A DNA stretch of 64,000 nucleotides, from contig JAGMDC010000011.1 in the NCBI GenBank assembly GCA_023128895.1, positions 31,820 to 95,819 on the forward strand, in the 5' to 3' direction. A program made the position numbers and the translations under genes. The notes under the pieces are model-generated. The model saw only the letters and a program-made list of their open reading frames with translations, searched no databases and had not been told where the DNA came from. Positions 1,760 to 51,844 of this stretch are shown here, piece after piece (position 1 is the stretch's first letter; each line of letters opens with the position of its first letter). The DNA is from Candidatus Parcubacteria bacterium (lineage in GTDB: Bacteria > Patescibacteriota > Minisyncoccia > Minisyncoccales > JAGMDC01).

Positions 1760-2503
1760 TTACGAATTACGAATTACGAATTTACGGATTTTTTGGGCTA
1801 AAATTTCTGGATTTTCCGTGTATGGAAAATGGCCAATGCCCGGCAAAATCTCCAACTTAGAATTTGGGATTTCCTTGTCCATCAAGTATGCGTCGGATAT
1901 TGGCGTCATATTATCTTTATCGCCCCAGATAATCAAACAGGGAATTTTAATTTTTGAAAAATATTTTCTTAAATCTTCTTTGATTATATTTCTAAATGTT
2001 TCTTTCAAATACAATGATTTTTCCGCCTGAATATAATCAGTTCTTCGTAAAATGTATTTGTAAAAACCCTTGCGAAACAGATTATACAAGGGAATGGACG
2101 AAAATATCTTTCCAAATTTTGCGATTTTGGAAACGCAAACCCGAACAAATTTTCTTTTCGGAATTATTCCGGCAGATGAAACCAAAATTAATCCTTTTAA
2201 TTTTTCAGGATTTCGCGCTGCGAACTTTATGGCAACCCGGCCCCCGAAAGAATGCCCCAATAAAAAAAACGGCTCATCAAAGTCCGAACAAAATTTCTCA
2301 AACCACCTCACATAATCGTTTAAATCCCATACGCGCGGCAATTCTGTTTCTTTTTTAAACCCCGGCACATCCATCACCTTTATTTTAATACTGCGAGAAC
2401 CGTTCTCGTAGTATTGATTGAGCAGGGATTTTACTGTCTGCCATTTTTCTTTTGAACTGCCCCATCCGTGGAGAATAATAATTGTATCTTGACAAATTGG
2501 CAT
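1760..2503 (-). CDS. alpha/beta-fold hydrolase
   Basis: 247-aa ORF with HGWGSS near the N-terminus, the nucleophile elbow GHSFGG and a C-terminal GIGHFP histidine motif. It contains an in-frame copy of the 29-bp palindrome (QYYENGSRSI). Confidence 0.75.
   Translation of the reverse strand: MPICQDTIIILHGWGSSKEKWQTVKSLLNQYYENGSRSIKIKVMDVPGFKKETELPRVWDLNDYVRWFEKFCSDFDEPFFLLGHSFGGRVAIKFAARNPEKLKGLILVSSAGIIPKRKFVRVCVSKIAKFGKIFSSIPLYNLFRKGFYKYILRRTDYIQAEKSLYLKETFRNIIKEDLRKYFSKIKIPCLIIWGDKDNMTPISDAYLMDKEIPNSKLEILPGIGHFPYTENPEILAQKIRKFVIRNS
2387..2415. repeat. 29-bp palindromic element, copy 1 (inside the hydrolase CDS)
   Basis: aatactgcgagaaccgttctcgtagtatt. One mismatch from a perfect 14+1+14 palindrome. 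Translated in-frame as YYENGSR. Confidence 0.85.
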
Positions 2504-2818: not shown

Positions 2819-4140
2819 GACAACTCATTTTTTTTATCTCTTTTCTCTATTTTGTTTATTCCAATATATTTTTGCAGGACTTTTGGGATTAAGACACTGC
2901 CGTCTTTCTGCTGATAATTTTCCAAAATAGCGATAAGGATTCTCGGAGAAGCAATCATTGTGTTATTTAGAGTATAAACAAATTTTTTCTCGTTATTTTT
3001 TATTCTGTATTTTATATTCATCCGCCGCGCCTGCCAATCAGTCAGCGCGGAATCAGAATGCGTCTCGCCGTAACTATCTCTGGAAGGCATCCAAGTTTCA
3101 ACATCTTGCATTTCATATTTTCCAGCGCCCATATCTCCCGTGCAAACCTGAACAACCCTGTACGGCAATTTCAATTCCTCTAAAATTTCTTTGGCACAGC
3201 CCCCTATTTCGTCAAACAATTTATGACTTTCCTCTAAATCAGCCCGGCAAAAAACAACCTGCTCAATTTTCATAAACTCGTGAAGGCGATACAAGCCCTT
3301 TGTATCTTTTCCGTAACTTCCCGCTTCTGAACGATAGCAAGAAGAAAATCCAGCCAATTTGATTGGCAATTTTTTTTCGTCTAAAATAGTGTCAGCGTAA
3401 TACGCTAATAACGCGGGCTCGGATGTTCCGCCTAAAAAAAATTTCTCTTTCACTTCCTCTCCGCTTGCTAATCTGCCTGGATTTGCGATTTGATATATTT
3501 CGGCTTTCGCTTCCGGAAAATGACCGCTGCCAATAAGAACATTCTCGCGCAAAATTGTTGGCGGAATCATTACAACAAATCCTTTCTTCCTTAATTTATC
3601 CAAAGCAAACTGCATTAAAGCGAATTGCAACAATACTGCTTCATTTTTGAGATAATAACCGCGAAATCCGCTTGTTTTAACTCCTCTCTCTATATCAATC
3701 AAATCCAAATCTTTTCCTATTTGAATATGGTCTTTTATTGGAAAATCAAATTTGGGAATTTTGCCTGATTTATAAACTTCTTTATTATAAGTATCGTCAA
3801 CGCCAATAGGAGTATCTTTTGAATAAACATTCGGAACCAAAAGCATTATCTCGTTATACTCCGCGTCAATTTTCTGGAATTGTTTTTTTGTTTTGTCGCT
3901 TTGCTTGTCAATCTTGCGCATTTCTGAAATAATTTTCTTTTTGCTTTTTTCGTCTTTTGCAGCGATAATATCCTTGTTCGCTTTATTCTTTTTCGCGCGA
4001 AACCCGTCTAAAGTGAGCATTATCTTCCGCCTCTGCCTGTCTATTTTCAAAAGTTTATCAATATCAACTTTCACCTGCTTATTCTCGCAGGACTTCTTAA
4101 CTCTATCCGCGTTCTCTCTAATAAATTTTATGTTTAACAT
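2815..4140 (-). CDS. serS: seryl-tRNA synthetase
   Basis: 441 aa. N-terminal coiled-coil arm followed by class II motifs (FLGGTSEPAL, CYRSEAGSYGKDTKGLYRLHEF, TLNNTMIASPRILIAILENYQ). Confidence 0.95.
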   Translation of the reverse strand: MLNIKFIRENADRVKKSCENKQVKVDIDKLLKIDRQRRKIMLTLDGFRAKKNKANKDIIAAKDEKSKKKIISEMRKIDKQSDKTKKQFQKIDAEYNEIMLLVPNVYSKDTPIGVDDTYNKEVYKSGKIPKFDFPIKDHIQIGKDLDLIDIERGVKTSGFRGYYLKNEAVLLQFALMQFALDKLRKKGFVVMIPPTILRENVLIGSGHFPEAKAEIYQIANPGRLASGEEVKEKFFLGGTSEPALLAYYADTILDEKKLPIKLAGFSSCYRSEAGSYGKDTKGLYRLHEFMKIEQVVFCRADLEESHKLFDEIGGCAKEILEELKLPYRVVQVCTGDMGAGKYEMQDVETWMPSRDSYGETHSDSALTDWQARRMNIKYRIKNNEKKFVYTLNNTMIASPRILIAILENYQQKDGSVLIPKVLQKYIGINKIEKRDKKNELS

Positions 4141-4158
4141 AATATTTTAATGAGCGAA

Positions 4159-5655
4159 TTATTTTTTATTCTTTTGTTTCATCATTGGAAACAGCATTGC
4201 TTCGCGTAATGCGTGAGAATTGCTTAAGACAGCAACTAATCTGTCAATTCCCATTCCAATTCCTGCCACAGGCGGCATGCCGTATTCAAGTGCCTCCAAA
4301 AAATCCTTGTCTATTCTTTGCGCTTCTTCAAATCCCTTCTTGCGCAATTTCTCCTGCTCCTCAAATCTCTTTCTTTGCTCCAAAGGGTCGTTAAGTTCGG
4401 AAAACCCCAAAGCCATTTCCCAGCCAGCGATAACCATTTGAAAATTCGCGAGTTTTCTTTCATTAGAAATCCCATTAACAATATGAGTTTTCTGGTCAAG
4501 TTCTTTTGCTAAAGGAAAACTGCCCAATGGATGATTAATAACAAAACAAGGGTTCCAGATTTTTGGGCGGCAGAGCTTCTTGTAAATCTCGTCGGCGATT
4601 TCCGGCTTGCCGGCTCCTTTTGGTATATCAATCCCTAATTTCTTGGCTTTTTGCGCCAAAGCTTTGTCGTTAATTTCTCTTAAATCTATTTTTGTGTGTT
4701 TCTTTACTAACGCGGAAAATTCAATTCTTTGCCAAGGGGTTTTAAAGTCAATTTTTCTGCCCTCATATTCTATTGTTGTCCTCTTAAACACATTCTTTAA
4801 AATACTCTTGAACATTTCCTCAACCATCTTCATCATATCTTTATAATCAGCGTAAGCCCAATAAAATTCCAAAGAAGTGTATTCCGGGTTGTGCGACTTG
4901 TCCATACCTTCATTTCTGAATAATCTTCCTATTTCAAAAACCTTGTCAAAACCGCCGATAACAAGCCGTTTCAAATAAAGTTCCGGCGCGATTCTTAAAT
5001 ACAAATCCATATTCAGCGCGTTAAGATGTGTCTTAAACGGCTTTGCTTTTGCCCCGCCGTATATTGGCTGTAAAATCGGGGTTTCTACTTCTAAAAATCC
5101 CTTTTTCTCCAAAAAATTACGGATTTCTTTTGTGGTTTTGGAACGCAAAATAAACTTTTCTTTCACATCCGGATTAAACAATAAATCCAAATATCTCTTT
5201 CTGTATCTCTCTTCAACATCCTGCAAGCCATGCCATTTTTCCGGCAAAGGCAAAAGCGATTTTGCCAGCATCTTATAATCCCCTGCTTCAATTGTTTTTT
5301 CGCCTCTTTTTGTTTTAAATAAAATCCCGCGAATTTCTATAAAATCGCCTATGTCAAAATTATCCAGAAAAAACTGATAGCTTTTTTCGCCCAAGCGATT
5401 TTTTTTAAAATACGCCTGAATTTGGTTAGTTCCGTCCTGAAAATGCAAAAAACAAGAGCCGCCGTGCTCGCGCAAAGACCTGATTCTGCCTGTTAAAATC
5501 ACCAGCGTCTCTGTTTTGCTTAACTTCGCAAAATCTTTAAGCGCCTCAGTTATAGTATGGGTTCTTTTCACTGTCCCGGGATAAGGATTTATGCCGGCGC
5601 GCTGTATTGCCTCTAATTTCTGTATTCGTATTTTCCTTAAATTCTGCTCCGCCAT
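4159..5655 (-). CDS. lysS: lysyl-tRNA synthetase, class II
   Basis: 498 aa. OB-fold N-terminal domain, then FRNEGMDKSHNPEYTSLEFY and GIGMGIDRLV class II motifs. Confidence 0.95.
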   Translation of the reverse strand: MAEQNLRKIRIQKLEAIQRAGINPYPGTVKRTHTITEALKDFAKLSKTETLVILTGRIRSLREHGGSCFLHFQDGTNQIQAYFKKNRLGEKSYQFFLDNFDIGDFIEIRGILFKTKRGEKTIEAGDYKMLAKSLLPLPEKWHGLQDVEERYRKRYLDLLFNPDVKEKFILRSKTTKEIRNFLEKKGFLEVETPILQPIYGGAKAKPFKTHLNALNMDLYLRIAPELYLKRLVIGGFDKVFEIGRLFRNEGMDKSHNPEYTSLEFYWAYADYKDMMKMVEEMFKSILKNVFKRTTIEYEGRKIDFKTPWQRIEFSALVKKHTKIDLREINDKALAQKAKKLGIDIPKGAGKPEIADEIYKKLCRPKIWNPCFVINHPLGSFPLAKELDQKTHIVNGISNERKLANFQMVIAGWEMALGFSELNDPLEQRKRFEEQEKLRKKGFEEAQRIDKDFLEALEYGMPPVAGIGMGIDRLVAVLSNSHALREAMLFPMMKQKNKK

Positions 5656-8428: not shown

Positions 8429-9662
8429 AATGAAAAAATCTAAGATTAAAAATATAAAAGCGCGTGAAATTTTGAATTCCAGAGGCGAACCTGCGATAGA
8501 AGCAGAAATTGAAACCAATGATGGAAATTTTTTCGCTTCTGTTCCGTCCGGCGCGTCCAAAGGAAAATATGAAGCGCGCGAACTGCGCGACAAAGACAAA
8601 AGATATCAGGGCAAAGGCGTTCTAAAAGCCATTAACAATATTGAAAAAATTATCGCTCCAAAATTAAAAGGAAAAAATCCCTGCGAGCAGAAAAAAATAG
8701 ACGAAATAATGCGCGAATTGGACGGAACAAACAATAAATCAAAACTCGGAGCAAACGCGATTTTGGCTGTTTCCATTGCTGTGTGCCGCGCGGGCGCGGG
8801 CGCGCAGAACATCGCCCTCTCGCGCCATATCGCTTATTTATCAAAATTAAAACAAACAAAACAATATCCCCTGCCCTGTTTGTTAATGATTGAAGGCGGT
8901 CTCCACGCTGGAAATAATCTGGATTTTCAAGAATTTATGCTCATTCCAGCGTACGCGAAAAATTCTTTTTCAAAAAATCTGGAAATGCAAACAGAAATTT
9001 ATCATGAGCTGGGAAAAATTATAGAGAAAAAATTCGGGAGAACGGCAATAAATGTCGGAATGGAAGGAGGATTTGCCCCTCCAATAAAATCATCTGAACA
9101 AGCCCTGGATTTGATTGCGCGGGCAGTCAAAAAATGCGGCTCTAATAATAAAGTAAAAATTATCATTGACGCCGCGGCGTCTGAATTTTACGAAAACAAA
9201 AAATATAAAATTAACGGAAAAATTTTTACCAACAGCGAACTTCTGAACTACTATAAAAAATTAGTCAAAAAATATCCCATTGCGGGAATTGAAGACCCAT
9301 TTGCTGAAAACGATTTACAAGGATGGCAAATGGCAAAAAAACTTCCATGCCAATTTATTATTGGAGACGATTTAACCGTCACAAATCTTGAAAAAATCAA
9401 AACAGCGAAACAAAACAATTTTATCAATGCCGTAATAATTAAGCCAAACCAAATCGGCACGGTGAGCGAAACAATTGATTCCAGTAAATTTGCCGCGGAC
9501 AGCAACATAAAAATTTTCGTGAAACACAGATCTGGCGAGACCAACGATGATTTTATCGCTGACCTGGCAATCGGCATTGGAGCTTACGGAATAATGGCCG
9601 GCGCGCCCTGTCGCGGGGAGCGAACAGCAAAATACAATCGGCTATTAAAATTGATACAATGA
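8415..9662 (+). CDS. eno: enolase
   Basis: 415 aa. AREILNSRGEPAIEAEI, IKPNQIGTVSET and HRSGETNDDFIADLA motifs. The start may instead be the ATG at 8430, just after the galU stop. Confidence 0.95.
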   Translation: MKNYRMKKSKIKNIKAREILNSRGEPAIEAEIETNDGNFFASVPSGASKGKYEARELRDKDKRYQGKGVLKAINNIEKIIAPKLKGKNPCEQKKIDEIMRELDGTNNKSKLGANAILAVSIAVCRAGAGAQNIALSRHIAYLSKLKQTKQYPLPCLLMIEGGLHAGNNLDFQEFMLIPAYAKNSFSKNLEMQTEIYHELGKIIEKKFGRTAINVGMEGGFAPPIKSSEQALDLIARAVKKCGSNNKVKIIIDAAASEFYENKKYKINGKIFTNSELLNYYKKLVKKYPIAGIEDPFAENDLQGWQMAKKLPCQFIIGDDLTVTNLEKIKTAKQNNFINAVIIKPNQIGTVSETIDSSKFAADSNIKIFVKHRSGETNDDFIADLAIGIGAYGIMAGAPCRGERTAKYNRLLKLIQ

Positions 9663-11263
9663 AAAAAACAATTAAAACAATTAAAAAAAGAACCGAATCA
9701 ATAAAACCAGTAAAGAAACCTGTTAAATCTGCGGTAAAGAAACAAATGAGAAAGAAACGACCTATGAAAGACAACACAAATATTAAGCAAACCAAGATTA
9801 AAGTTATCGGCGTTGGCGGAGGCGGATGTTCTATTGTTTCGGAGATTTCATCGTCTCTTAAAAAAATAGATTTTATCGCGGCGAACACTGATATTCAAGC
9901 GCTAAAAAAAATAAACAGAAACTGCAAAAAATTGCAGTTTGGCGAAAAACTTACTCATGGATTAGGATGCGGAATGAATTCTGAATTAGGAAAAAAATCA
10001 GCTGAAATTGAAAAAGAAAAAATCAAAAAAATAATTGAAGGCGCTGACTTTTGCGTGTTAATATCCTGTTTAGGCGGCGGCGCCGGGTCTGGCGCGACGC
10101 CTGTTTTCGCTGATATATGCAGAGAATTAAAAATTATTTCATTTGGCATATTCACGCTTCCTTTTAAATTTGAAGGCGAAAAAAAAGCAAAAATCGCGCA
10201 AAACGCGCTGGAAAAAATAAAACCCAACCTAAATGGCTTTGCTGTTATCCCAAATGAAAAAATATTCCAAATCATTGACAAAAACACTCCGTTGGAAAAA
10301 TCTCTTTACGCTCTAAATAAAATTTTGGGACAATGGCTGGAGGGCGTTGTAGAAATGATTTATCTTCCAGGGTTAATCAATATTGACTGGTCTGACTTAA
10401 AAACAATCTTAGAAGGAAAAGGGAAATTGTGTTTTCTTAATAGCGTTGAGGAGAAGAAAACAGGAAAATTAGAAGAAATAACAAGAAAAGTTCTTCATAG
10501 CCCGTTAAACACATATGATATAGAAGGCGCTGAAAAAATTTTATATAATATTGCTTCCAGTAAAGACATCACAATGAAAGAAGTCCAGCAAATCAGCGAA
10601 AATATCACTAATTTTAACACCAATGCAAAAATAATTTTTGGCGTATCGTTTCATCCTAAATACAAAGAAAAAATCAAAATAACTTTACTTGCTGTTGGGT
10701 GCGGGAAAGACCGGGAAAATCTAAAACCAAAACCCAAAATCCGCCCTACGAGCCGCCGGCCTGTAGAAAAAAAACTCGCGGAGTTGCAGTTATCGCTCAA
10801 AGAAAATAACAAAGAAGACAGCGCCGCAAAAGAATCAGAAGATCAAATCGTTGAACCTGCCCGCAACGCTTCGCTACGCTCGCGTAGCGAAGCGGGCGGG
10901 CCCGAGCAAAAACCCGAACAAAAACCCGAGCAAAAACCCGAGCCAGCCCGCAACGCTTCGCGTAGCGATGCGGGCGGGCAAAAACCCGAGCCAGCCCGCA
11001 ACGCTTCGCGTAGCGATGCTGGCGGGCAAAAAATACAAGAAATCCGCCAGCGCGTAGAAGACAAACCTAAAAAACCAAAACCTAAAAATCCGCCAGCGCG
11101 TAGAAAAAAAACCGGCAGCACTCTTTTACTGCCTCAAGATACTACCAAGAGGAAAAACGCTTTAGAACTAAAAAAAGAAGCGGAAAATATAGAAAAAAAA
11201 TTATTAGAAGAGGAAGAACAATGGGAAACGCCTGCTTTTTTGCGCAAAAAAAAATTACCTTGA
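9659..11263 (+). CDS. ftsZ: cell division protein FtsZ with a long repeat-containing C-terminal linker
   Basis: 534 aa. IKVIGVGGGGCSIV and LGGGAGSGATPVFA tubulin-signature motifs. The linker carries three in-frame GC-rich palindromes (PARNAS..RSDAGG) and QKPE repeats. The C-terminal peptide is TPAFLRKKK. Confidence 0.9.
   Translation: MKKTIKTIKKRTESIKPVKKPVKSAVKKQMRKKRPMKDNTNIKQTKIKVIGVGGGGCSIVSEISSSLKKIDFIAANTDIQALKKINRNCKKLQFGEKLTHGLGCGMNSELGKKSAEIEKEKIKKIIEGADFCVLISCLGGGAGSGATPVFADICRELKIISFGIFTLPFKFEGEKKAKIAQNALEKIKPNLNGFAVIPNEKIFQIIDKNTPLEKSLYALNKILGQWLEGVVEMIYLPGLINIDWSDLKTILEGKGKLCFLNSVEEKKTGKLEEITRKVLHSPLNTYDIEGAEKILYNIASSKDITMKEVQQISENITNFNTNAKIIFGVSFHPKYKEKIKITLLAVGCGKDRENLKPKPKIRPTSRRPVEKKLAELQLSLKENNKEDSAAKESEDQIVEPARNASLRSRSEAGGPEQKPEQKPEQKPEPARNASRSDAGGQKPEPARNASRSDAGGQKIQEIRQRVEDKPKKPKPKNPPARRKKTGSTLLLPQDTTKRKNALELKKEAENIEKKLLEEEEQWETPAFLRKKKLP
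10859..11027 (+). repeat. three GC-rich palindromic elements (10859-10901, 10946-10979, 10994-11027) inside ftsZ
   Basis: gcccgcaacgcttcgc..gcgaagcg/gtagcgatgcgggcgggc. Each is an imperfect hairpin in an otherwise AT-rich gene. All are read in the same frame as P-A-R-N-A-S..R-S-D/E-A-G-G. Confidence 0.85.
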
Positions 11264-11720: not shown

Positions 11721-11727
11721 ATCTTTT

Positions 11728-11888
11728 AAGGTTGCAGGACAATATCATTTCTACTGCGACTTCCAAAATTTGGTCAAATTTCCCCAAAATTTTCTCAACT
11801 TGTATTCCATACAGGTTTCAAAAATTATTTGAAAAATTTCCCTCAAATTTTGAAACTCTCGCTACGAAAGCATATTGTCCCACAACCT
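11728..11888. mobile_element. MITE family 1, copy 1 (161 bp)
   Basis: The terminal inverted repeats are aaggttgcaggacaatat and atattgtcccacaacctt. The interior is near-identical to copy 41080-41239. It sits 7 bp upstream of the greA start. Confidence 0.75.
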
Positions 11889-22714: not shown

Positions 22715-24970
22715 TTATTCATCTGGTGGCGGTTCAACTGGCGCTGGTGCGGGCACCTCAACTGGTTCTGGAGTAATAACTGGTTCGGGTTCAATAACTG
22801 GTTCGGCTCCCTCCTCTGTTTCTGAAGGAACTTGCGTAGGCAAGGGTTCAGGCTCGCCCGCCTGAATGCCCGAAAGGCTTTGCGTAGGTTCAATTGTCGG
22901 AGGTTCAACCTCCGATTGTTCTAACTCGGACTCAATTTTCGGAAGTCCGACTTCCGAAAATTCTGGTTCGGGTTCATCTATAGACAATCCTTCGACAGGC
23001 GCTTCAGCGTCTATTGGAACTTCCTCTGCGTTATCGTTATTGCCATCTCCAATCTCGTCAACAGCGCTCTCTGTATCCACGCTGCCTGTTGCGACAAAAG
23101 TATTGTTATTAATAATTAATGTGTCTAAAACTTCCTCATCTCCGCTGTCAACCTCATCATCATCATTTGTCGGAGGTTCAACCTCCGATTGTTCAGGCGC
23201 TTCATCGCTGGTCTCGTTCACAGGTGCTTCGGCGATAGATTCATCGCCAATGTCATCGCCCGCCCCGCCGTTGCCATCAAACTCAACAACAGCGTCCTCT
23301 ACACCAGGCGCGCTTATTCCGACAAAAGTATTGTTATTAATAATTAATGTGTCTGGCACTTCATTATCGTTAACGATTTCCTCAAAAGTTTCTTCGGGAG
23401 AAGTTTCTTCATCGTTCATTCCTTCAACAAGTATTTCTTCATCAGGTATTTCTTCAACGAGTATTTCTTCAACGAGTATTTCTTCAACGAGTATTTCTTC
23501 AACGAGTATTTCTTCAGACGATTCTATCGTCTCAAAAAGCAACATTTCTAATACTTCGGATTCAGTTAATAAAGGAGGACAAAAATCATTATCACTTTTA
23601 TCCCATGTCTGAACCATAAAATTCTCAGGCCCTTCTGCTGATATTTTTATTTTAATATCAGCGCCCACAAATCGGTGGTCGTAAGGAATTGTCCACTCGT
23701 ATTCTCCATCATTATAAGTATCATCAACAATTTTATAAAAACAATTATTACCGTGCTTATTGCAGAACCAGATATCTATTTTCAAATTTTCGTCAGAACC
23801 ATTATAATTGAAAGCTTCCCAACTTATAGGATAAATTCCAAACCAAAGATGAGCCAAATGAGGAGGAACAATGAACCACTGCTCTCCTCCATTAGGATAT
23901 AAAACAGTAACTTCGGGCAAACCAAGATATTCCCAATCAGAAACTTTGTCAGTGTCAAAACCTGTCGGCACCCTGCCCAGCACATTGCCTTTTGCCGCGC
24001 CGAGCACTCCAGGGTTCCATACATTTGAATTCCAATTTTGCCAACCATTGTTAGAATATCCCCAATTCATCTGGTCAATAATATTTCCGTGACTATCCTT
24101 CAAGATAAGCATATCAGCAACATTATCCAGCCAGCCGTTTGCTGGCGCTGTTCCTAAATTTATAGTTTCAACAAAATCAGGCACATCCCAATATTCAGTC
24201 CAAGTAGTATTGTCATGGGAAAGCAAAGCATATCCAAGGGTAGGAACATTTACTTGCTTGTCAATAACTTTACATTGGCTATTATTGCAAATTTCCCATT
24301 TCTCAATATTTATATCTTCGTCTGTGGGATTATAAAGTTCTATCCATTCATTTTTCTGCTCTGTGCCATGCTCTGAATCAACATTATAATACACTTTATT
24401 TATTACTAAATAGGGCTCAAATTGCGTGCTAATTATTGTATTTTCAATTTCTTCATAGTCGCTGAAACCAGCACAATCGCCAAGTTGAACGCCATCAAAA
24501 ATAAACTTAAAATTACAAATTTTGTTTTCAAATTCTGGATTATCATCTGGCAAACTCGCGATAAACTCCCAGTTCTCTGTCTCAAAAAATTTCCCTGCTT
24601 CAAAAATAAAATCTGTTAAATTCCCGATATATTCAGATTCTCCGTTGTCTAAATTAGCGTCTAATCGCAAAGCGTTGCAAAAATCCGTGTCACCGGAAAA
24701 CTCATCCGCGTAAACCGTATATTGAAAACCCAAACTGCCGTTGTTAATAACGCTAATAGCCCGTTTCGCGGGTTGCGTCAAGGATACTAATGGAAGAAAA
24801 TTTGCTAAAGAAGAAAGAGAGAAATCCAATGTGCTGATTTCTATCACATTGCTTCCAGAATTTTCAATATCGCGAAAATGCGCCAACTCTTCGTTCACAG
24901 CCAAAACCCCAGGTATATTCAAACCCAGAATCATTAACAACGCAATTATTTTGGTGATATATTTAAACAT
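22715..24970 (-). CDS. secreted protein: TasA/SipW-type N-terminus + lamin-tail domain + Ig-like domain + acidic low-complexity tail
   Basis: 751 aa. The signal region is followed by LAHFRDIENSGSNVIEISTLDF. The LTD motif is [37 protein letters not shown]. It has a PNGGEQW Ig-like module and EEILV, D/E-rich and PEP-rich tails. It is a paralogue of 36787-38790. Confidence 0.75.
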   Translation of the reverse strand: MFKYITKIIALLMILGLNIPGVLAVNEELAHFRDIENSGSNVIEISTLDFSLSSLANFLPLVSLTQPAKRAISVINNGSLGFQYTVYADEFSGDTDFCNALRLDANLDNGESEYIGNLTDFIFEAGKFFETENWEFIASLPDDNPEFENKICNFKFIFDGVQLGDCAGFSDYEEIENTIISTQFEPYLVINKVYYNVDSEHGTEQKNEWIELYNPTDEDINIEKWEICNNSQCKVIDKQVNVPTLGYALLSHDNTTWTEYWDVPDFVETINLGTAPANGWLDNVADMLILKDSHGNIIDQMNWGYSNNGWQNWNSNVWNPGVLGAAKGNVLGRVPTGFDTDKVSDWEYLGLPEVTVLYPNGGEQWFIVPPHLAHLWFGIYPISWEAFNYNGSDENLKIDIWFCNKHGNNCFYKIVDDTYNDGEYEWTIPYDHRFVGADIKIKISAEGPENFMVQTWDKSDNDFCPPLLTESEVLEMLLFETIESSEEILVEEILVEEILVEEILVEEIPDEEILVEGMNDEETSPEETFEEIVNDNEVPDTLIINNNTFVGISAPGVEDAVVEFDGNGGAGDDIGDESIAEAPVNETSDEAPEQSEVEPPTNDDDEVDSGDEEVLDTLIINNNTFVATGSVDTESAVDEIGDGNNDNAEEVPIDAEAPVEGLSIDEPEPEFSEVGLPKIESELEQSEVEPPTIEPTQSLSGIQAGEPEPLPTQVPSETEEGAEPVIEPEPVITPEPVEVPAPAPVEPPPDE
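23431..23520 (-). repeat. 15-bp tandem repeat (6 units) encoding (EEILV)n
   Basis: gtatttcttcaacga repeated head-to-tail, in frame inside the LTD protein. Confidence 0.9.
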
Positions 24971-33087: not shown

Positions 33088-33127
33088 CCCCCACACCTAA
33101 TCTGGTAATCCAGGTTAGGTGTGGGGG
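33088..33127. repeat. 40-nt GC-rich hairpin, copy 1
   Basis: cccccacacctaatctgg-taat-ccaggttaggtgtggggg. It lies downstream of the 435-aa gene. A near-identical copy is at 40043-40082. Confidence 0.75.
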
Positions 33128-35363: not shown

Positions 35364-36769
35364 ACTGTTTCTTTTTTAAATTTTCTTTTGGTAATCTCTC
35401 TGTCAATCCAATAGGCCAAAAGAGTTGCTAAGGCCAAAACAATAAAAATCCAGAACGGAACGCAAAAACATTCAAGTAAGAACATTAAAATTGCCAAAAT
35501 TATTGGAATTAAACAACAAATAAGCCAAATAATTCCTTGCTTTCGGAAATGTTTTTTCAATAATACATTATATTCTTTTTTGCTTTTTTGCAAAAAGGTT
35601 ATTCCCTCTATTAAAGGATAAATGGCAAAGAGCAAAATTAACCACCAAGGCAGACAAGAGGGAAACTTTAGCGCGGCTAATAAACTAGCTAAGAAAGGAG
35701 TTGGAGAGGGTTCTTCAACTATTTCTTCCTCAACTATTTCATCTTTCATTGGTTCTTCTTCCTTTTTTTCAGGTTCTTTTGGTTCTTCAGGCGCTGCCTC
35801 TACCGGCGCTATGAATATTTTTTCATCAATTTTTTCCTCCTTTTCCTTCTCCTCTTCCTTCTTTTCTTTTGCTTCTTCCTTTTTCTCTTCCTCTTCTTCT
35901 TCCTCTCCTATTACACAAAGGGTAGTAAACTCATATTCCGGGCTTATATTCAATGAATATGGGCTAATTCGGTAAGAAACAACACGATAATAATAATCAG
36001 TGCAAGGCTCAATGTCAGGAAGAATAATCGTATGGAAAGTTTTTACTGCGGAATCCTCTGGCACAGGATAAATATGAGCATAGCCGTAATAAGGCGAGTC
36101 ATCAGGATTAAAATCACGGCTTTCGTGTTCAGCTGAATAAATCACCTGGCTTGTGGCGAAAAGAGTGGTCTGCCAGGTAATAGTTGCTGTATTTTCAGTG
36201 ATATCTATTGATTTTACATTAAAAATTTTAAGAGTAATCGGAACTCCGCCGCCGGTGCCTGTCTGAACGCCTAATGTTGTGACTGTGGTATCTTCATCTT
36301 CTTCTTCTTCTTCTGATGAAATATCTCCGATGACCAAATCAAATTGAAGGGTTTCTCCCTGATATTCATTACCTGCCAAAAGAGCAAAGGTAATATCAAG
36401 GTCGTATTGGGTTTGCGCGCCATTAGCAAGAACGGAAAGGTCAATACTGGTTTGAGAAAATAAATGGGAAAGAGTATTGCTGTAAAGAGTGCTGGCTCCT
36501 TCTTTAATTTCTAAATTAAGAACATCGCCTAAATGGGCAGGGTCAGTAACATTATCCGTGTAAATAGATATTGTTCGAGGTTCCGCGCCATTATTTTCAA
36601 CTTTTATCCAGCCGTCAGAACTGTCTCCGGGTAAAAAATTTGTTTCTGTAAATAATGGGTCTTGCTCAAACTGCATTTCTAATCCATTCTGCGCGCAAAC
36701 TGAAAACCCTGTGAAGCTAAAGCCAAGGATAAGTGATAAAAATATTAAATTGGCGCTGTGTTTGGTCAT
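35360..36769 (-). CDS. membrane-anchored protein: TasA-like beta-sandwich segment + Fn3-like module + acidic spacer + multi-TM C-terminus
   Basis: 469 aa with a signal peptide. FLPGDSSDGWIKVENNGAEPRTISIY resembles the TasA-family PGD..N.G strand pair. ATITWQTTLFATSQVIYS..YYYRVVS is shared with the vWA protein. E/K-rich tracts follow, then about 4 C-terminal TM helices. Confidence 0.6.
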   Translation of the reverse strand: MTKHSANLIFLSLILGFSFTGFSVCAQNGLEMQFEQDPLFTETNFLPGDSSDGWIKVENNGAEPRTISIYTDNVTDPAHLGDVLNLEIKEGASTLYSNTLSHLFSQTSIDLSVLANGAQTQYDLDITFALLAGNEYQGETLQFDLVIGDISSEEEEEDEDTTVTTLGVQTGTGGGVPITLKIFNVKSIDITENTATITWQTTLFATSQVIYSAEHESRDFNPDDSPYYGYAHIYPVPEDSAVKTFHTIILPDIEPCTDYYYRVVSYRISPYSLNISPEYEFTTLCVIGEEEEEEEKKEEAKEKKEEEKEKEEKIDEKIFIAPVEAAPEEPKEPEKKEEEPMKDEIVEEEIVEEPSPTPFLASLLAALKFPSCLPWWLILLFAIYPLIEGITFLQKSKKEYNVLLKKHFRKQGIIWLICCLIPIILAILMFLLECFCVPFWIFIVLALATLLAYWIDREITKRKFKKETV

Positions 36770-36786
36770 TGAATTTAATATAAGGG

Positions 36787-38790
36787 TTATTCTGCTGGGG
36801 CGGGCGCTGGTTCGGGCGCTGGCACAGGTTCAAGCGCTGGCGCAGGTTCGGGCGCAGGTTCGGGCGCTGGCGCAGGTTCGGGCGCTGGTTCAGGCGCTGG
36901 CGCTGGTTCAGGCGCTGGCGCTGGTTCAGGCGCAGGTTCAGGAGCTGGTTCTGGCGCTGGCGCTGGAGCAGGTTCAGGCGCTGGAGCTGGTTCGGGCGCT
37001 GGTTCAGGCGCTGGCGCTGGTTCAGGCGCAGGTTCAGAGGCTGGTTCGGGCGCTGGCGCTGGTTCAGGTGCTGGAGCTGGTTCGGGCGCTGGCGCTGGTT
37101 CGGGCGCTGGCGCTGGTTCGGGCGCTGGCGCTGGTTCAGGCGCTGGCGCAGGTTCTGGCGCTGGCGCTGGTTCGGACATTGGTTCTGGTTGTCCTACCCC
37201 ATTGTCCACAGGATTTTCAACTGGCAAGAGTTCTGGCGGAGCTGGCGGTTCAACTGGCTCAACTGGTTCAACTGGCTCAATAGGTTCTGTCGGTTCTACT
37301 GGCTCAACTGGCTCAACTGGCTCAATCGGTTCTGTCGGTTCTACTGGTGCAACCGCGCCAACTGATCCAAGGGGTTCGTCTGGTTCTGGCGGTTCAAAAA
37401 CTCGAGGACCTGTAGCAGAATCTTGAACCATAAAGTTCTCCGGACCGTAAGCAATTACTTTTACCCAAACATAACCATAATAGCAATAAGAGCCCCGTAT
37501 ATAAAGACGATAACTTCCTGAATTTGCTATATGATCAGCCACAAGATAAGTTCTGTCTCCGCTGCTAATTCTTCCATTTCTATCATTATCAGTAATATAA
37601 ACAATATCAATCAATAACTCATTATCATCGCCATTAGGATTTGTTGCTGACCAGTTAATTGTATAAGTCCGTCCACAATACCAATAGCCGCTGTGATAAT
37701 AAGAAACAGATACAATAGGCGGCGCTAAATCTTGAAAATCAGACGGTTGGTCAGTATCATACCCGTCCGGGACCCTTCCGAGCATATGTCCTTCGTCAAC
37801 ATCAGGACAGCCCATTGGAGTCCAAACTCCTAAATTATAATTCAACCAATTAATATCAGGAATTCCCCAATTCATTTGGTCAATAATATTGTTATGATTA
37901 TCTCTTAAAACGAGCATATCAGCGGTATTATCCAAGCCATTGCCAATAGTCCCGTCAGATAAAACAATTTTCACAACATCCGCGGGAATCTCCCAATAAT
38001 TCCAAGTGCTTGCGTTTCCTGTAATCAACGCGTAACCATAAGATGGAATAATAATACTTGAAGCAGATAACACATCTAACCCGGCATCGTCTTCAATGCT
38101 CCAGTTCATAATATCTATTGACTCATCGCTGTCATTGTAAAGTTCTATCCATTCATTTGCCGGCTCTGTCCCATGGTCTGAATCAACATCGTAATAAACC
38201 TTGTTAATAACAAGTTTTGGCAATTCAGGAGCACAAATTCCTGAAGTGATAGTATTTTCAATTTCCTCTTCGTCGTGAAATCCGCCTCCTTCTAAATCCA
38301 CTTGCCAGCCGGAATACAAAAACTTAAAAGAGCAAACTGATTCTTCCGGAAATCCGTCAATTAAAGTAGCGGTAAAATGCCATTGATGAGGAACAATGCC
38401 ATTAGGTTCTGCAAATAGAAATTCCTCACAATTAAAACCAATTAAATTGCCTTGGCATTCTGATACTCCTCCATCTAAATTCGCCTCTAAAATAATGTAA
38501 CTACAGAGGTCTCCAGAAAAATCAGTTGTCTCAATTTTATAACGAAAAGGATTGCCATTATTCAACAGGTCAATAGTTCTCTCAGCCGTTAAACAAGTCA
38601 TTTCCGGCATGAAATCCTGGGGCGAGGATAAATAGAAATCCAAGGCCCCGGCAATCAGGGAACTGTCAGTAGAACTTTCAGGGTCGTCAAAATAAGCAAA
38701 AACCTGTTTTGTTTCTAAAGCAAAAGCCGCCATCCAAATTACTGCTAAGACAGCGCAAAAAATACCTATTTTGAACGCTCTAAAATTCAT
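36787..38790 (-). CDS. secreted protein: TasA/SipW-type N-terminus + lamin-tail domain + Ig-like domain + (PAPE)n tail
   Basis: 667 aa. [27 protein letters not shown]. The LTD motif is [37 protein letters not shown]. The C-terminus carries ~140 aa of PEPAPA and PVEPTEPIE repeats. Confidence 0.75.
36790..37345 (-). repeat. GC-rich hexa/dodecanucleotide tandem repeats encoding PAPE and PVEP tracts
   Basis: ggcgctggttcaggc-type units, in frame within the 667-aa ORF. This is the most G+C-rich stretch in the window. Confidence 0.9.
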
Positions 38791-40042: not shown

Positions 40043-40082
40043 CCCCCACACCTAATCTGGTAATCCAGATTAGGTGTGGGGG
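40043..40082. repeat. 40-nt GC-rich hairpin, copy 2
   Basis: cccccacacctaatctgg-taat-ccagattaggtgtggggg, directly abutting the -35 of the promoter block. Confidence 0.75.
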
Positions 40083-40362: not shown

Positions 40363-40395
40363 TCACTTGAAAATAAAAAGAACATAATTTTCAAT

Positions 40396-40554
40396 GAGAG
40401 GGTGGGACAATATCTTTCGTAGCGAGAGTTTCAAAATTTGAGGCAAATTTTTCAAACAATTTTTGAAACTTAATATTGTTAAGTTGAAAAAATTTTTGGG
40501 AAATTTGACCGAATTTTGGAAATCGCAGCAGAAAGAATATTGTTCTACACTCTC
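40396..40554. mobile_element. MITE family 1, copy 2 (inverted relative to copy 4)
   Basis: gagagggtgggacaatat..atattgttctacactctc. The interior matches the reverse complement of 49972-50130, including the central cttaacaatattaagtt loop. Confidence 0.8.
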
Positions 40555-40639
40555 ACAATGTCCTAATATTAAAAATAAACAAAATTTTGTCAATACCTTT
40601 TATGTCCTAATGTCCCACATCGCCTTTACGGACAATAAA

Positions 40640-41047: not shown

Positions 41048-41079
41048 ACTTAAAGGAATAATAGCATCTTTGGTATATT

Positions 41080-41239
41080 GAGAGTGTAGAACAATATCAT
41101 TTCTACTGCGACTTCCAAAATTTGGTCAAATTTCCCAAAAATTTCCTCAACTTGTATTCTATACAGGTTTCAAAAATTATTTGAAAAATTTGTCTCAAAT
41201 TTTGAAATTCTCGCTACGAAAAATATTGTCCTACACTCT
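41080..41239. mobile_element. MITE family 1, copy 3, inserted in a Fic gene
   Basis: 160 bp, gagagtgtagaacaatat..atattgtcctacactctc, flanked by ATATT/ATTTT. Removing the MITE plus one 5-bp flank restores one continuous Fic ORF. Confidence 0.85.
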
Positions 41240-42059
41240 CATTTTTCATTTCAGAATTAAATCCCTGGATAAAATATTCCAGCCAATTAGTCATATCGCC
41301 CTTCATCCGTTCTTCATAATTGTCGCCCAGATGAATTGCCTTATAATACGCGGGACGATTTTTATTGTAATAACTTTCTAAAGCGAATAATCTGCGGAAG
41401 TCATAGCCCCTTTGATAAAGAATAAGGGTCGCTAACAAGCGCGCGGTTCTGCCGTTGCCGTCAGCAAAAGGATGAATAGCCGCAATTTCAGAATGCGCGA
41501 CTCCAGCTACAATGATTGGACAAATATGATTTTTCTTAGTTTGGTTCATATAATTGACTAAATTTTTAGCCAATTGCGGGACTTGTTTCGGGTCTGGGCC
41601 GGTATAAGATATTTTAATAATTTTATTGCCTCTGCGGCTCACGACATAAACTTTGCGCTTTCTAAAACTGCCGCAGTTGTCTTGAGCAATAGTATTTTTT
41701 GTTACTAATTCGTGAATTTTCAAAATGGTCTTAATGGTAATTTTTTGCTTTTTCTGCGCAAATTCGGAAATAAAATACAGCGCGTCGCGGTAATTTTTGA
41801 CTTCAAAAATATCCCGTTCAGGAGCATCAACCTTTTCATTGGATAAAACTTTTTCCACTTCATAACGATTCAATATATTTCCCTCAATGCTGGTAGAGGA
41901 ATGAATCATTCTTATCATTGCTTGCCGCCTTAGTTTCAATTCTTGTTTGGGAAGAATCGGCGTATGTAAAATCAATGATTTGATTTCAGCGATCTCCATT
42001 AAATCATTAAGGATTTGATGCGTGATTGTATATTTTGGAGTAAAGATATTTATTTTCAT
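41214..42059 (-). pseudogene. N-terminal Fic-domain fragment of the MITE-split Fic gene
   Basis: 281 aa with the Fic motif HPFADGNGRTARLL. The last 8 codons (ESVGQYFS-stop) are read from MITE sequence. Confidence 0.8.
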
Positions 42060-45427: not shown

Positions 45428-48400
45428 TTACAATTTGCGGAATTCGCAAATGTTTCTGAAATCGCAATACTTGCAATGGAACGGATTCGGGGTCGGCTGA
45501 AAATCGCTCTGCTTAATTTTCTCAACCATATTCTTTATCTTTTCCTCAATCTCTTGTTTGCCTTTCTCTATTCCAATAAAAGAAACAATACTCCCGTCGT
45601 TCAAATAATAATAACTTAATTTTTCCACGCGCAATCCAAATACTTTTTCCGCGGCAATCTGGTAAATCAATAATTGTTCTTTCTCCTCCGGCTTTAACTT
45701 TGTTTTTGATTTTCCTGTTTTATAATCAATAATCTCCACACTTTTGCCTGTATCGTCTATTCTGTCTATTTTCCCGACAAAAGTACTCCCTCCTATTTTC
45801 AGTTTGAAACTTTTTTCCAAGACAGGGATGCCCTGAATTGTTTTGATTTTTGGATTTGTTTTTATAAAATTATCGTAAAAAATTTTAAGCGAATCCTTGC
45901 CCAACTTGTAATACTTCTGTTTCTCTTCTTCATTTTCAAACCATTCGTCTTTCCAATTATTTTTATAAATCTCCATCAGCTCCTCAAATCCAATAGTACG
46001 AGAACCGTTCTCGTAGTATTGATTTTGGTTTGATTGGGCAGGGGCAAACAATTGATTTTGGGAACTATTTTCGCTTTTCATAACCCTGTTTATAAAATCA
46101 TATAGAGTATTATGCATTGTTGTGCCGTAAGTAAATACTGCTTTGCCTTTCACCGGAATTTTCAAAATATGCGCGAATTTATACTGCAAAGGACATTTTT
46201 CAAAATTCGCCAACTGGCTGTAAGAAAAATGGTCTGGAATCTGCCCTCCCGCATCGCTACGCTTCGCTGGCGAAGCGTTGCGGGCGGGGATTTGGGATAT
46301 TTTTAGGATACTTGCCATTGGAACCTGGGATTTATCTATTATCCCTGCTTCCATCAAAAACCGCGAAGGCTTTTTGAGCCGCGCCTGGCCGTAATCTTTC
46401 GCAGAAGTAAAAAACAATCCTTTTTTCGCGCGAGTCATCGCGACATAAAACAACCGCCTTTCCTCCTGTAAGTGAATGTCCCCTTCCGGCGCCACCTCCT
46501 TAACCAATGGCTCTGGAATTTCAATGGGCTCTTTTCTTTCAATCGTTGGAAATCTCTTATCAACCAAATTAACCAAAAAAACATACTTAAATTCCAAGCC
46601 CTTTGCGGAATGGATTGTCATAATTTTTACTGTTTCTTCGCCCAATTCTGGATTAAATTTCAACGAGCCCTCTTCGCCGGACTCCAATTCCATATCTATC
46701 TGCTGAATAAATAAGTTTAATTTAGGGTCTGTTTGCTCATCCTCAAACCGCTTAATTCTGTCATAAAATTGATTTATTAAGTCCAAATTTTCTTTCATTT
46801 TTTCCGGTTTCTTTTCTTTTGTTAAATGCTCCAAATATCCTGAATCCTGCAAAAATTCCACAAAAATCTCGCTGATATTTTTCTTTTGCGCCGCGGCGCT
46901 GTGCTTTTTGAGCAAACCTAAAATACTGCTGATTTTCTGCTGTCCCTGTTGGGAAATGCCTTGAATTAAAGGCAATTCCTCCATTGCTTCATACATAGAA
47001 CGAGCTTTGCGACGGCTGTATTGATTTATTCTTACTATATCGTCATAAGCAACCTTAAAACAAGGAATATTCAAAACCCTGTAAACAGCGGAACTTTCAA
47101 AATAATTGTCCAGCAATTTAAGATACGAAATAATGTCTAAAACAATTGGCTTGGAATACAGGCCTTTTGAAGACAAAAATTGATAAGGTATGTTCGCGCG
47201 CTCCATCGCGCGGGAAAACATATTTGCCGCCTCATTGGTTCTGCAAAGAATAGCAAAATCATTAAACGCAATATCTTGAGATTTGCTTTTGAGCTCTAAA
47301 ATTTTATTGACAACGCCGTCAAATTCCAGTTCTTTGGTGTCAAAAAATAAATGTTCAATCACTGCTTTGTCTGTTTTCGCGGCTTTTAATCTTTTGTCAA
47401 TTTTTTTAAATTCTGTCAAATCAACTCCTTTTTCGCGCGCACTTTGGGAAATTTCCTTTACTTTGTTGAGCTGGTATTCCAAGCGATTGGGATTATTAAA
47501 TTGGATGAATTTATAAGATAAGTCCAAAATGTTCTGACAGGAGCGATAATTTTCCGTAAGCACTATTTCCTTTGCTTTTGGAAAATCTTTTCTGAATTGC
47601 AAAACATTATTAAAAGAAGCGCCTCTCCACCTATACACACTTTGGTCGTCGTCTCCGCAAACCATAATATTGTTCTTTGGCTCAGCAATTTGTTTTACCA
47701 ATTCATACTGCGCCCAATTAGTGTCCTGAAATTCGTCCACTAAAATATACTTAAATTGTTTTCTGAATTTCTCTAAAATAAGAGGCCTCTGCTGGAATAA
47801 TTTCAAGCAGTAATTGATTAAATCAGCGAAATCCAGACAATTATTTTCCAACAATAAGCGCTGGTATGTATGATAAGCGTTTGCTATTTCTTTAATTCTG
47901 TCACGCTCGTCCTGCAGGCAGGCGAGTTCGCTTTTGTCTTTTGATTTTATTGCCTTGCTCCCAACTGGCGCGTCGTTTGTATTAAACTGCAAATCCTCGC
48001 TGTATTTCAAATATTGTTCCGGCGCGATTCCCTCGTCTTTGCACCGGGAAAAATGATTAAGCAAACTCTGTATAAACTTTGTTGGATTGCCCAACGGCTT
48101 ATAATAATCCAAATCAAACTTGTCTAAATTCTGGCGTATCAAAAGCCAGGACCCTACTTGGTCCAATAACCGAAAATTAGTTGAAAGCCCGATGTCCAAC
48201 CCGTAATTTTTCAAAACCCGCTCGCAAAAAGAATGAAAAGTGGAAATCCAAAATTCTGAATAATTATCCGGGAATATCTCCTCTACCCTATCCGCCATTT
48301 CTTCCGCGGCTTTTTCCGTAAAAGTTAAACCTAAAATTTCTTCTGGCTTTGCTTTTTTGGTTTTAATAAGTTCAGCGATTCTTTCCGTAATTACGGTTGT

Positions 48401-48502: not shown

Positions 48503-48555
48503 AGTTTCTTCTTAGTTCCAATCTACTATCTTTGCCGCTTTCGGTCAAACAAAAC

Positions 48556-48584
48556 AATACTACGAGAACCGTTCTCGTAACATT
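48556..48584. repeat. 29-bp palindromic element, copy 3 (intergenic)
   Basis: aatactacgagaaccgttctcgtaacatt. Confidence 0.8.
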
Positions 48585-48694
48585 GGAGATTTGAAGATTT
48601 TATTGAATCAGGTTATAATATAAAATGATTAAAGGTCGGTAAATTGGACAAATCAAAATATAATATAATATAATTTATATCAAATCAAAAAAAT

Positions 48695-49936: not shown

Positions 49937-49971
49937 CTTCAAGGCGGAAAATAATTAAAATTTAATAGTTT

Positions 49972-51842: not shown

Positions 51843-51844
51843 AA

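Follow-up and report, generated by a model that had tools for sequence, protein, structure and literature searches.

Palindromic repeats inside essential genes are known, and for most of their families the enzyme that spreads them is not. This question was raised again by a stretch of 64 kb (hereafter, the window) from a Candidatus Parcubacteria bacterium (contig JAGMDC010000011.1, positions 31,820 to 95,819 of the forward strand), in which one G+C-rich near-palindrome, here named H, was found in four copies, three of them in ftsZ and one in a gene encoding a helicase-nuclease fusion. What are these copies, and how did they come to lie in frame inside such genes? The H family is spread over many phyla, mostly of uncultivated bacteria, and is tightly linked to a gene for a GIY-YIG protein of about 80 aa. 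The copies of the window were considered to be solo, non-autonomous copies of this mobile palindrome, similar to repetitive extragenic palindromes (REPs) and probably mobilised by the GIY-YIG nuclease, a reading that we put at a probability of roughly 0.6.

Four Copies of a G+C-Rich Hairpin in Coding Sequences

The basic unit of H, derived from the comparison with copies elsewhere, is 36 nt long (CCCGCCCGCAACGCTTCGCGTAGCGATGCGGGCGGG) and carries a G+C outer stem of 10 bp (CCCGCCCGCA/TGCGGGCGGG), with a predicted fold of -29.1 kcal/mol. Inside this stem the interior is variable yet self-complementary (16-32 nt), and the size of H ranges from 36 to 52 bp. In the window, copy 1 (10856-10900, plus strand; 45 nt, CCTGCCCGCAACGCTTCGCTACGCTCGCGTAGCGAAGCGGGCGGG) encodes PARNASLRSRSEAGG in the FtsZ linker and is followed by a 12-nt tandem repeat, CCCGAGCAAAAA (PEQK; 10901-10942, plus strand), which holds copies 2 (10943-10978) and 3 (10991-11026) embedded. 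These two copies, both of 36 nt and on the plus strand, differ by 1 nt; copy 2 encodes (P)ARNASRSDAGG, and the PEQK repeat was restored once exactly 36 nt were taken out at its position. Copy 4 (46244-46288, minus strand) is a 45-nt variant, CCCGCCCGCAACGCTTCGCCAGCGAAGCGTAGCGATGCGGGAGGG, encoding PARNASPAKRSDAGG at the junction between a helicase core and a PD-(D/E)XK nuclease.

The first host gene, ftsZ (534 aa; 9659-11263, plus strand), stands in the syntenic gene order enolase-ftsZ-greA, and the second (1024 aa; 45428-48502, minus strand) encodes an AddA/PcrA-like fusion of a UvrD-type helicase and a PD-(D/E)XK nuclease. The domains of FtsZ (Tubulin, aa 46-207; FtsZ_C, aa 266-347) end before the H inserts, which lie in the C-terminal linker at about aa 401-457. 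Likewise, the insert of the second protein (about aa 741-757) is located between the end of UvrD_C (aa 702) and the start of PDDEXK_1 (aa 758). All four copies are read in the same frame (F0, PARNAS...RSDAGG) and in one orientation relative to the host open reading frame (ORF), and their lengths (45, 36, 36, and 45 nt) are all multiples of 3.

The number of copies is far above expectation. The left-arm 16-mer gave 9 matches with up to 3 mismatches in the window, against 0.33 expected, and the right-arm 18-mer gave 7, against 0.02; neither count was reached in any of 100 shuffled windows. Since H is palindromic, the arm matches beyond the four copies are the same copies on the opposite strand, and a generic family pattern revealed no fifth copy of H in the window. 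The G+C content of the window varies between 34 and 47% (2-kb steps), and the H copies are among the few 30-nt stretches reaching at least 73%. The predicted RNA folds of the window copies range from -20.6 to -36 kcal/mol (z-scores of -2.4 to -5.8). The value of -36 kcal/mol (z = -5.8) belongs to copy 1, in which 9 additional central bases form a perfect inner stem of 12-13 bp. Copies 1 and 4 carry different 9-nt central additions, each of which lengthens the inner stem. A 48-nt tandem unit, repeated with 96% identity, contains copies 2 and 3, which may therefore derive from a single insertion followed by a duplication instead of two insertions. A preliminary description of this stretch had reported the four copies (1-3 nt off these positions), their G+C richness against an A+T-rich host, their common orientation and frame, and strong mRNA hairpins in ftsZ, the last now backed by predicted folds; all these points held for the window.

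The Hairpin Is a Mobile DNA Element

The proteins closest to the FtsZ of the window, sought among 5.8 billion sequences, were Parcubacteria/Nealsonbacteria-like. One homologue (P0001) carried a single copy of the peptide, P0002 to P0007 carried none, and P0017 contained the reverse-frame peptide. The enolase-ftsZ-greA order of the window recurs at the ftsZ loci of P0001 (L203) and P0003 (L204), and in the DNA alignment the orthologous site was empty in L204 (GCGCCTG^AAACAG), occupied by a 36-nt copy in L203, and occupied by copy 1 in the window. In another Parcubacteria genome (L205, encoding P0017), H is reversed and located in the Lys-rich part of the FtsZ linker, an independent insertion. 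H is therefore not a conserved motif of FtsZ, since close relatives have empty sites and the DNA shows insertion; it is a mobile DNA element. The comparison of FtsZ orthologues proposed in the preliminary description thus separated an empty site from a filled one. That description had also held that the same peptide in the FtsZ linkers of unrelated lineages would speak against a mobile element. The peptide does recur formally in P0001 and, in the reverse frame, in P0017, yet at the DNA level these are insertions and the sites are empty in close relatives.

Species-representative genomes were scanned with an exact 22-base core and a variable gap, and at least 119 loci with 125 listed copies were obtained; all the counts given below on 119 loci or 125 copies refer to the matches listed in that scan. 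The identical 36-mer was present at 119 or more loci with unrelated flanks, although the exactness of the scan pattern accounts in part, through ascertainment, for its perfect identity from phylum to phylum. According to the record titles, the hosts were Patescibacteria of many classes, Verrucomicrobiota, one Lentisphaerae metagenome-assembled genome (MAG), Bdellovibrionales, Gammaproteobacteria MAGs, Margulisiibacteriota, and Terriglobales, and the local G+C content of the loci ranged from 31 to 66%. The insertion of H is precise and occurs without target-site duplication; a precise 36-nt excision restored the neighboring sequence in the window and at the loci L007, L064, L075, and L119. With the empty and filled ftsZ sites, the reverse insertion in L205, and identical copies in unrelated flanks, the earlier proposal of a mobile hairpin similar to REPs or to Rickettsia palindromic elements (RPEs), translated in frame at tolerant sites, was borne out.

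Related variants of H are common. Class II variants have the form CCCGCCTGCA..TGCGGGCAGG, with a flipped form CCTGCCCGCA..TGCAGGCGGG, and nested copies of H within H were found at L124 and L129, the latter with a 33-nt copy in the loop of a 36-nt copy. No unpaired GTAG/CGTC tag was detected at the ends of H, the flanks of the 125 listed copies diverging right outside the stem; GTAG occurs inside H, in the loop of class I copies only, and is missing from many class II variants. Rfam matches around the H copies were only at chance level. In loci of the Lentisphaerae MAG (L025, L044, L050, L055, L065, L099, and L118) and of Gammaproteobacteria MAGs (L014, L052, L088, and L096), the 36-nt core was embedded in longer conserved repeats, such as GGTGGCCCGGCTTCTCCCTG-core-CAGGCGGGCGAAGACGGGCT and GGATAGGGGAGCCTG-core-GGGGCGCAGGTGGGGTT. 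The core is therefore a module within larger repeat families specific to some genomes.

Copies Inside Protein-Coding Genes

Five of the six frames of the 36-nt unit are open: F0 (PARNASRSDAGG), F1 (PPATLRVAMRA), R0 (PARIATRSVAGG), R1 (PPASLREALRA), and R2 (RPHRYAKRCGR). A stop codon (TAG) occurs in F2 only. As the unit equals 12 codons and most frames lack a stop, a genic insertion merely adds a peptide of 12-15 residues, mostly hydrophilic. About 60% of the listed copies were outside long ORFs. H was read through in 26 long ORFs (at least 300 codons), some of which, in G+C-rich loci, may be spurious; the frames were F0 in 11 cases, R1 in 6, R0 in 4, F1 in 3, and F2 and R2 in 1 each, the F2 case being a long variant with a shifted frame. 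F0, the most hydrophilic frame, was enriched (p = 0.008 against 0.2) but not exclusive. The single tolerated frame of the preliminary description is thus a preference, with the other four open frames also in use. A peptide query of four PARNASRSDAGG units shared words with 1349 candidates, only 3 of them at E <= 10.

Hosts confirmed by Pfam in A+T-rich loci of the candidate phyla radiation (CPR) were PcrA/UvrD, MiaA, a family 1 glycosyltransferase, RecJ, UvrB, a SufS-like aminotransferase, RecG, and Fpg; UvrA was assigned as a host by eye. The claim that the copies always lie in disordered linkers did not hold in general. It described the window copies, in the FtsZ linker and at the helicase/nuclease junction, but in other genomes H was located within domains, namely UvrD_C, Aminotran_5, the DEAD domain of RecG, and the N-terminal domain of Fpg. 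The removal of H joined ORFs in only 3 of 125 cases, all in G+C-rich loci and needing 35 nt instead of 36, and none was convincing; no convincing gene split by H in the stop frame was found among the 125 listed copies. Since the removal of H rarely joins ORFs, it appears that genic copies are translated and that disruptive insertions are purged. Genic copies persist at tolerant protein sites, such as the FtsZ C-terminal linker or the helicase/nuclease junction.

Among the CPR hosts, genes for DNA repair and recombination were strikingly frequent: PcrA/UvrD, RecJ, UvrB, RecG, Fpg, UvrA (loci L009, L053, L062, L103, L107, and L110), and the helicase-nuclease of the window (45428-48502). In Opitutus, Xanthomonas, and Rickettsia, intragenic REPs have been described with the same excess of DNA-repair hosts (PMC3733652).

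A Minimal GIY-YIG Nuclease Accompanies the Hairpin

The ORFs located within 2.5 kb of H were clustered for the 119 loci, which had been chosen by the hairpin alone. The sole widely recurring family was a GIY-YIG protein of about 80 aa, Slx1-like (UPF0213-type), with the consensus MFYTYVLKS..DGKLYVG...REKQLKTGFGRAYLKRRL. Its ORF was within 206 nt of H at 13 of the 119 listed loci, and no conserved nuclease ORF was detected at 300-2500 nt from H, the exception being a weaker second hit at 299 nt in L064. The proteins have 79-88 aa and consist of the catalytic domain alone, PF01541 being the only domain matched (E = 1e-15 to 1e-16). Their identity across phyla is 54-68%, and the catalytic residues Y5, Y16, R26, H30, and E50 are invariant. 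The nearest relatives of solved structure were the UPF0213 proteins 1zg2 (E = 4.8e-11) and 1ywl (E = 1.1e-8) and, weakly, SLX1 (E = 0.0055).

The link was also analyzed in reverse, with 80 metagenome loci fetched by the nuclease protein alone. A hairpin of the family was present within 150 nt of the nuclease gene in at least 30 of these 80 loci, with a few more found by inspection, and the canonical hairpin was present in 10-11. The hairpin density was 1.43 per kb near the nuclease gene and 0.033 per kb elsewhere. Additionally, nucleases associated with the same hairpin class were slightly more similar to each other (64.1% identity) than otherwise (61.0%; permutation p = 0.0005, sequence relatedness being ignored).

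The nuclease family is large, with at least 7769 clusters at 90% identity (E <= 1e-10) among 8000 scored candidates and 8401 clusters at 50% identity (E <= 0.001), all under generic database names. The 36-mer had no match in the PLSDB plasmids or in the INPHARED phages and was found in only 2 contigs of IMG/VR, and the 16 phage matches to the nuclease were all distant. Therefore, the element is not carried by known plasmids or phages.

A subgroup of the nuclease in four metagenome loci (L128, L138, L145, and L149) was located away from tRNA genes and flanked by an inverted repeat, CCCCGTGAGATA / TATCTCACGGGG. In L138, the nuclease apparently lies in or beside an ORF resembling, by eye, a four-helix-bundle gene of the 23S rRNA intervening-sequence type.

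Cassettes at tRNA and tmRNA Genes

A tRNA or tmRNA gene was detected within 400 nt in 32 of the 80 loci selected by the protein, the usual spacing being a tRNA start 4-31 nt past the nuclease stop codon on the same strand. Among the 125 listed class I copies, 19 were within 400 nt of such a gene, against 4.9 expected. In the A-H-B-GIY-tRNA layout, observed in about 26 of 33 tRNA-linked loci, the order is tRNA positions 1 to k, H, the next 3-14 nt of the tRNA, a spacer, the nuclease ORF, 4-31 nt, and the intact tRNA. In another layout, an intact tRNA is followed by the nuclease ORF, a variable-loop fragment, H, and a T-arm and 3' fragment, and in a third the order is smpB, the nuclease ORF, H, and tmRNA.

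The H of a cassette thus interrupts a partial duplicate of the adjacent intact tRNA gene. In about 26 of the 33 tRNA-linked cassettes the duplicated segment runs from position +1 (with 0-4 nt of extra identity upstream) to about position 14-26, and H is inserted at positions 6-20, inside the segment and not at its edge. At least ten tRNA identities were represented (Gln, Asn, Leu, Lys, Ala, Ile, His, Val, Thr, and Glu). H occurred in either orientation at the same cassette position and on either side of the nuclease ORF, at a distance of 7-80 nt. No fixed target sequence for H was found in the tRNA genes, the insertion point being often GG^T, a weak preference.

Where the neighbor is a tmRNA gene, H directly adjoins the 5' end of the mature tmRNA. 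In a Nealsonbacteria MAG (L200), from the group closest to the FtsZ of the window, the exact consensus 36-mer separates the nuclease gene (P0127) from the tmRNA and overlaps positions 1-3 of the latter. By contrast, the whole 64-kb window contained no GIY-YIG gene, no tRNA or tmRNA gene detected by ARAGORN, and no Rfam family at gathering score; without a GIY-YIG, tRNA, or tmRNA gene in the window, its copies of H are solo copies.

One locus of a Verrucomicrobiota MAG (L081, about 3816-4745, 930 nt) displayed two tandem scars before an intact tRNA-Val, each comprising about 100 nt of upstream sequence, the first 20 nt or so of tRNA-Val, and a hairpin. The nuclease gene and a further, degenerate hairpin follow tRNA-Val, and a third canonical hairpin with the same flanks lies outside the 930-nt stretch. 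This arrangement suggests repeated rounds of insertion and duplication. At L127 and L131, the nuclease ORF is followed on its 3' side by a duplicated tRNA 5' segment and an apparent tRNA start (TTCCGGCGTGGCGCAACGGTAGCGCGGATCCCTGTAAAA...) that was not called by ARAGORN. This tRNA may be interrupted by a group I intron; such introns in tRNAs have been described for Patescibacteria (PMC13011429).

Proposed Origin of the Window Copies

The structure-specific GIY-YIG nuclease would recognise or cleave the hairpin or cruciform formed by H, and its action together with host repair would copy H to new sites, in parallel to the RAYT (REP-associated tyrosine transposase) enzymes and the REP repeats. The window copies would descend, as non-autonomous offspring, from a cassette at another place in the genome, the probable location being smpB-ssrA, where the Nealsonbacteria relative has one. 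A precedent is offered by SegB, a GIY-YIG endonuclease of phages T4 and T6, which cuts inside tRNA genes and promotes the tandem duplication of the tRNA+segB unit through microhomology (PMC2330249, PMC13096335). More tentatively, and with somewhat less than even odds in our judgment, H and the minimal Slx1-like nuclease may constitute a previously unrecognised class of mobile element. Its cassette would settle in tRNA or tmRNA genes, in their 5' (or 3') part, and a segment duplication would regenerate the gene; the palindrome alone would be copied elsewhere without target duplication, including into essential protein genes.

Several points weigh against mobilisation by the nuclease. That the enzyme binds, cuts, or moves H is what we infer. 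GIY-YIG enzymes are hydrolytic, and we know of no strand transfer by them; the protein is moreover a bare catalytic domain of 80 aa with no DNA-binding domain. Around half of the nuclease loci selected by the protein had no family hairpin, some being flanked by the inverted repeat CCCCGTGAGATA instead. The test of covariation between hairpin class and nuclease identity ignored the relatedness of the sequences, and the cross-phylum identity of the 36-mer owes part of its extent to the exact 22-mer demanded by the scan. The insertion point in tRNA genes varies (positions 6-20) and the target preference is weak, roughly GG^T. The nuclease model explains neither how a hydrolytic enzyme would bring about insertion, nor the tRNA duplication and its start at +1, nor the place of H inside the duplicated segment, and the window itself has no GIY-YIG or tRNA genes.

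Alternatively, the spread of H could be due to host processes, for instance repair synthesis that is hairpin-primed or templated, or to some other enzyme, with the GIY-YIG cassette merely using H or being attracted to it. In that case H could act as a 5' or 3' stabiliser of mRNA or as a terminator, as a homology breaker that prevents cassette loss between the duplicated tRNA segments, or as a homing site for the cassette. The variable distance between H and the nuclease gene, on either side, is compatible with such processes, as are the location of H in a non-functional tRNA copy, where it divides a direct repeat of about 22 nt, and the fact that about 85% of the listed class I copies are not near tRNA or nuclease genes. 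The 45-nt variants also resemble products of intra-strand templated stem extension. What host processes leave unexplained is why one palindrome family with conserved outer stems accompanies one nuclease family across phyla, and why H scars occur beside tRNA genes without a nuclease gene (L029, L075, and L081). We consider this origin unlikely overall, although an H that serves the cassette without being moved by the nuclease, by breaking the direct repeat or stabilising mRNA, is a credible alternative. A still smaller chance is given to H being an ordinary element of the REP/REPIN (REP doublet forming a hairpin) or IS200/IS605 type, moved by an HUH tyrosine transposase such as RAYT encoded elsewhere in the genome. 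Its size, its hairpin shape, and the lack of target duplication resemble REPs and the ends of IS200/IS605, and a RAYT gene, being single-copy, could be located beyond all the stretches analyzed. Intragenic REPs have been documented, many of them in genes for DNA repair (PMC3733652), and the hosts of H include UvrA, UvrB, RecG, RecJ, Fpg, and PcrA. Yet the ends of H lack the conserved unpaired GTAG/CGTC tag that defines the REP superfamilies (PMC3733652), and the clustered ORFs near H included no recurrent transposase. The RAYT/IS200-type partner anticipated in the preliminary description was not encountered: a tblastn search with an IS200 TnpA sequence as query gave no match in the window and 199 loci, about 1 Mb of H and nuclease loci. 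The strong two-way link is to the minimal GIY-YIG nuclease instead.

Two further explanations appear far less probable. The repeats might be a selected, vertically inherited module of the host genes, either the peptide motif PARNAS..RSDAGG or an mRNA hairpin regulating ftsZ. A single frame in all four window copies, strong predicted mRNA hairpins, and the possible origin of copies 2 and 3 by tandem duplication would all agree with it, but close FtsZ orthologues lack H, about 60% of the listed copies lie outside long ORFs, and H stays conserved as DNA, down to its synonymous positions, where it is not coding or is read in another frame or orientation. Such a module is contradicted by the non-coding copies and by the empty site of the orthologue, and we regard it as very improbable. 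The removal of H at the RNA level, in the manner of an intron and with the coding frame irrelevant, was judged even less probable. At first sight, H occupies D-loop positions of tRNA-like sequences and recalls non-canonical tRNA introns, but the tRNA-like pieces are fragments beside an intact gene. H as a tRNA intron or insert was rejected after 80 boundary combinations per copy, with no tRNA found by ARAGORN across any junction once H was removed. RNA-level excision from ORFs was likewise rejected, given the 3 unconvincing joins in 125 cases, in G+C-rich loci and with 35 instead of 36 nt, and no Rfam family was matched.

Other Repeats in the Window

A second, unrelated family of short palindromes, AATACTACGAGAACCGTTCTCGTAGTATT, was found at window positions 2385-2419, 45989-46025, 48547-48587, and 51814-51851. 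Two copies are in frame in minus-strand ORFs and share the same frame (peptide NQYYENGSR[ST]I), one of them at about aa 829 of the helicase-nuclease gene that carries hairpin copy 4; the other two are intergenic. Additionally, a near-perfect 40-nt palindrome, CCCCCACACCTAATCTGGTAATCCAGGTTAGGTGTGGGGG, was present in two copies outside long ORFs (33088-33127 and 40043-40082). A repeat of about 160 nt with terminal inverted repeats (TGAGAGTGTAGA...) occurred four times and in both orientations (11724-11870, 40393-40558, 41078-41243, and 49970-50131), one copy lying just past greA and adjoining the ftsZ locus; it looks like a miniature inverted-repeat transposable element (MITE). Tandem repeats in frame were also observed at 36746-37400 (G+C-rich 12/18-nt and 9-nt units, Gly/Ser/Ala-rich), at 23359-23531 (a 15-nt unit), and at 58199-58636 (units of 102-114 nt).

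Implications

The H family connects solo copies, in frame within ftsZ and DNA-repair genes, with a defined nuclease cassette. If the nuclease does move H, the bacterial UPF0213/Slx1-like proteins would gain a function, and REP-like repeats would have a second kind of mobilising enzyme besides the RAYTs, the first candidate for the untagged ones. The cassette would then be a very small, testable system for the targeting of tRNA genes. For annotation, H inserts lengthen CPR proteins, and gene callers run nuclease ORFs through the hairpin.

A full-text search of the literature, which included the sequence itself, found no description of the H palindrome or of a GIY-YIG/tRNA/hairpin cassette; its coverage was incomplete and it is not proof of novelty. 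As in-frame REP-like repeats are already known, the window copies alone represent a new family or variant. Of greater interest are the spread of H across phyla and its tight link, apparently unnoticed before, to a minimal GIY-YIG cassette in tRNA and tmRNA genes, which offers a directly testable candidate for the mobilising enzyme.

Comparison With Known Systems

The G+C clusters of yeast mitochondria are short palindromes spread in a very A+T-rich genome, with in-frame copies in VAR1 among them. They differ from H in being organellar and eukaryotic, with an unrelated sequence and, to our knowledge, an unknown mobilising activity. From MITEs, H is set apart by being one whole hairpin, with no separate terminal repeats and no target-site duplication. 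The palindromes derived from IS200/IS605 share with H the lack of target duplication; for H, no fixed target was seen (a weak GG^T), and no TnpA was found with the IS200 TnpA query in the window and the 199 loci.

The REP and REPIN repeats are closer. Like them, H is a dispersed G+C-rich palindrome, mostly extragenic and with in-frame intragenic copies; those of the REPs are strikingly frequent in replication and repair genes, uvrA, uvrB, and recB among them (PMC3733652). The 36-nt unit with its 10-bp outer stem falls within the size range of REPs (20-40 bp, with a stem of 5-13 bp). The CGTC type of REP is likewise without a known transposase (PMC3733652). H differs by the lack of an unpaired GTAG/CGTC tag and of a 3-bp tail, and by a 10-bp outer stem around a structured interior of 16-32 nt. 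No RAYT was found for it, and its link to GIY-YIG and to tRNA/tmRNA genes and its near-identical copies in several phyla are further differences. In-frame insertion into protein genes is common to H and the RPEs, the inserted peptides being accommodated in linkers or at the surface of the protein (PMC1779305). RPEs measure 100-150 bp and belong to Rickettsiales (PMC1779305), whereas H has only 36-52 bp, a third to a quarter of that length, and its hosts are Patescibacteria, Verrucomicrobiota, and others, a distinction drawn by size and host.

Regarding the nuclease, SegB of T4 and T6 is similar in being encoded beside tRNA genes; SegB cuts within these genes, and its cleavage leads to the duplication of tRNA-containing segments (PMC2330249, PMC13096335). 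The catalytic GIY-YIG domain of SegB and of the I-TevI type is also intact in the H-linked nuclease. Nucleases of that type have a separate C-terminal DNA-binding domain that confers specificity for long sites. SegB is, moreover, a phage protein with no palindrome described, whereas the H-linked nuclease is a bare domain of about 80 aa encoded in bacterial chromosomes. Among horizontally transferred genes of CPR bacteria, GIY-YIG genes have been reported in one study (PMC12455944). By sequence and by its minimal single-domain architecture, the H-linked nuclease matches the UPF0213 or prokaryotic Slx1-like proteins (PDB 1zg2 and 1ywl; PMC1564403), and Slx1, their relative in eukaryotes, is a nuclease specific for DNA structure. 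For the prokaryotic proteins of this kind, the literature has assumed a role in repair and vertical inheritance (Dunin-Horkawicz et al., 2006; PMC1564403). Unlike that view, a large Slx1-like subfamily behaves here like a mobile tRNA/tmRNA cassette with a cognate palindrome.

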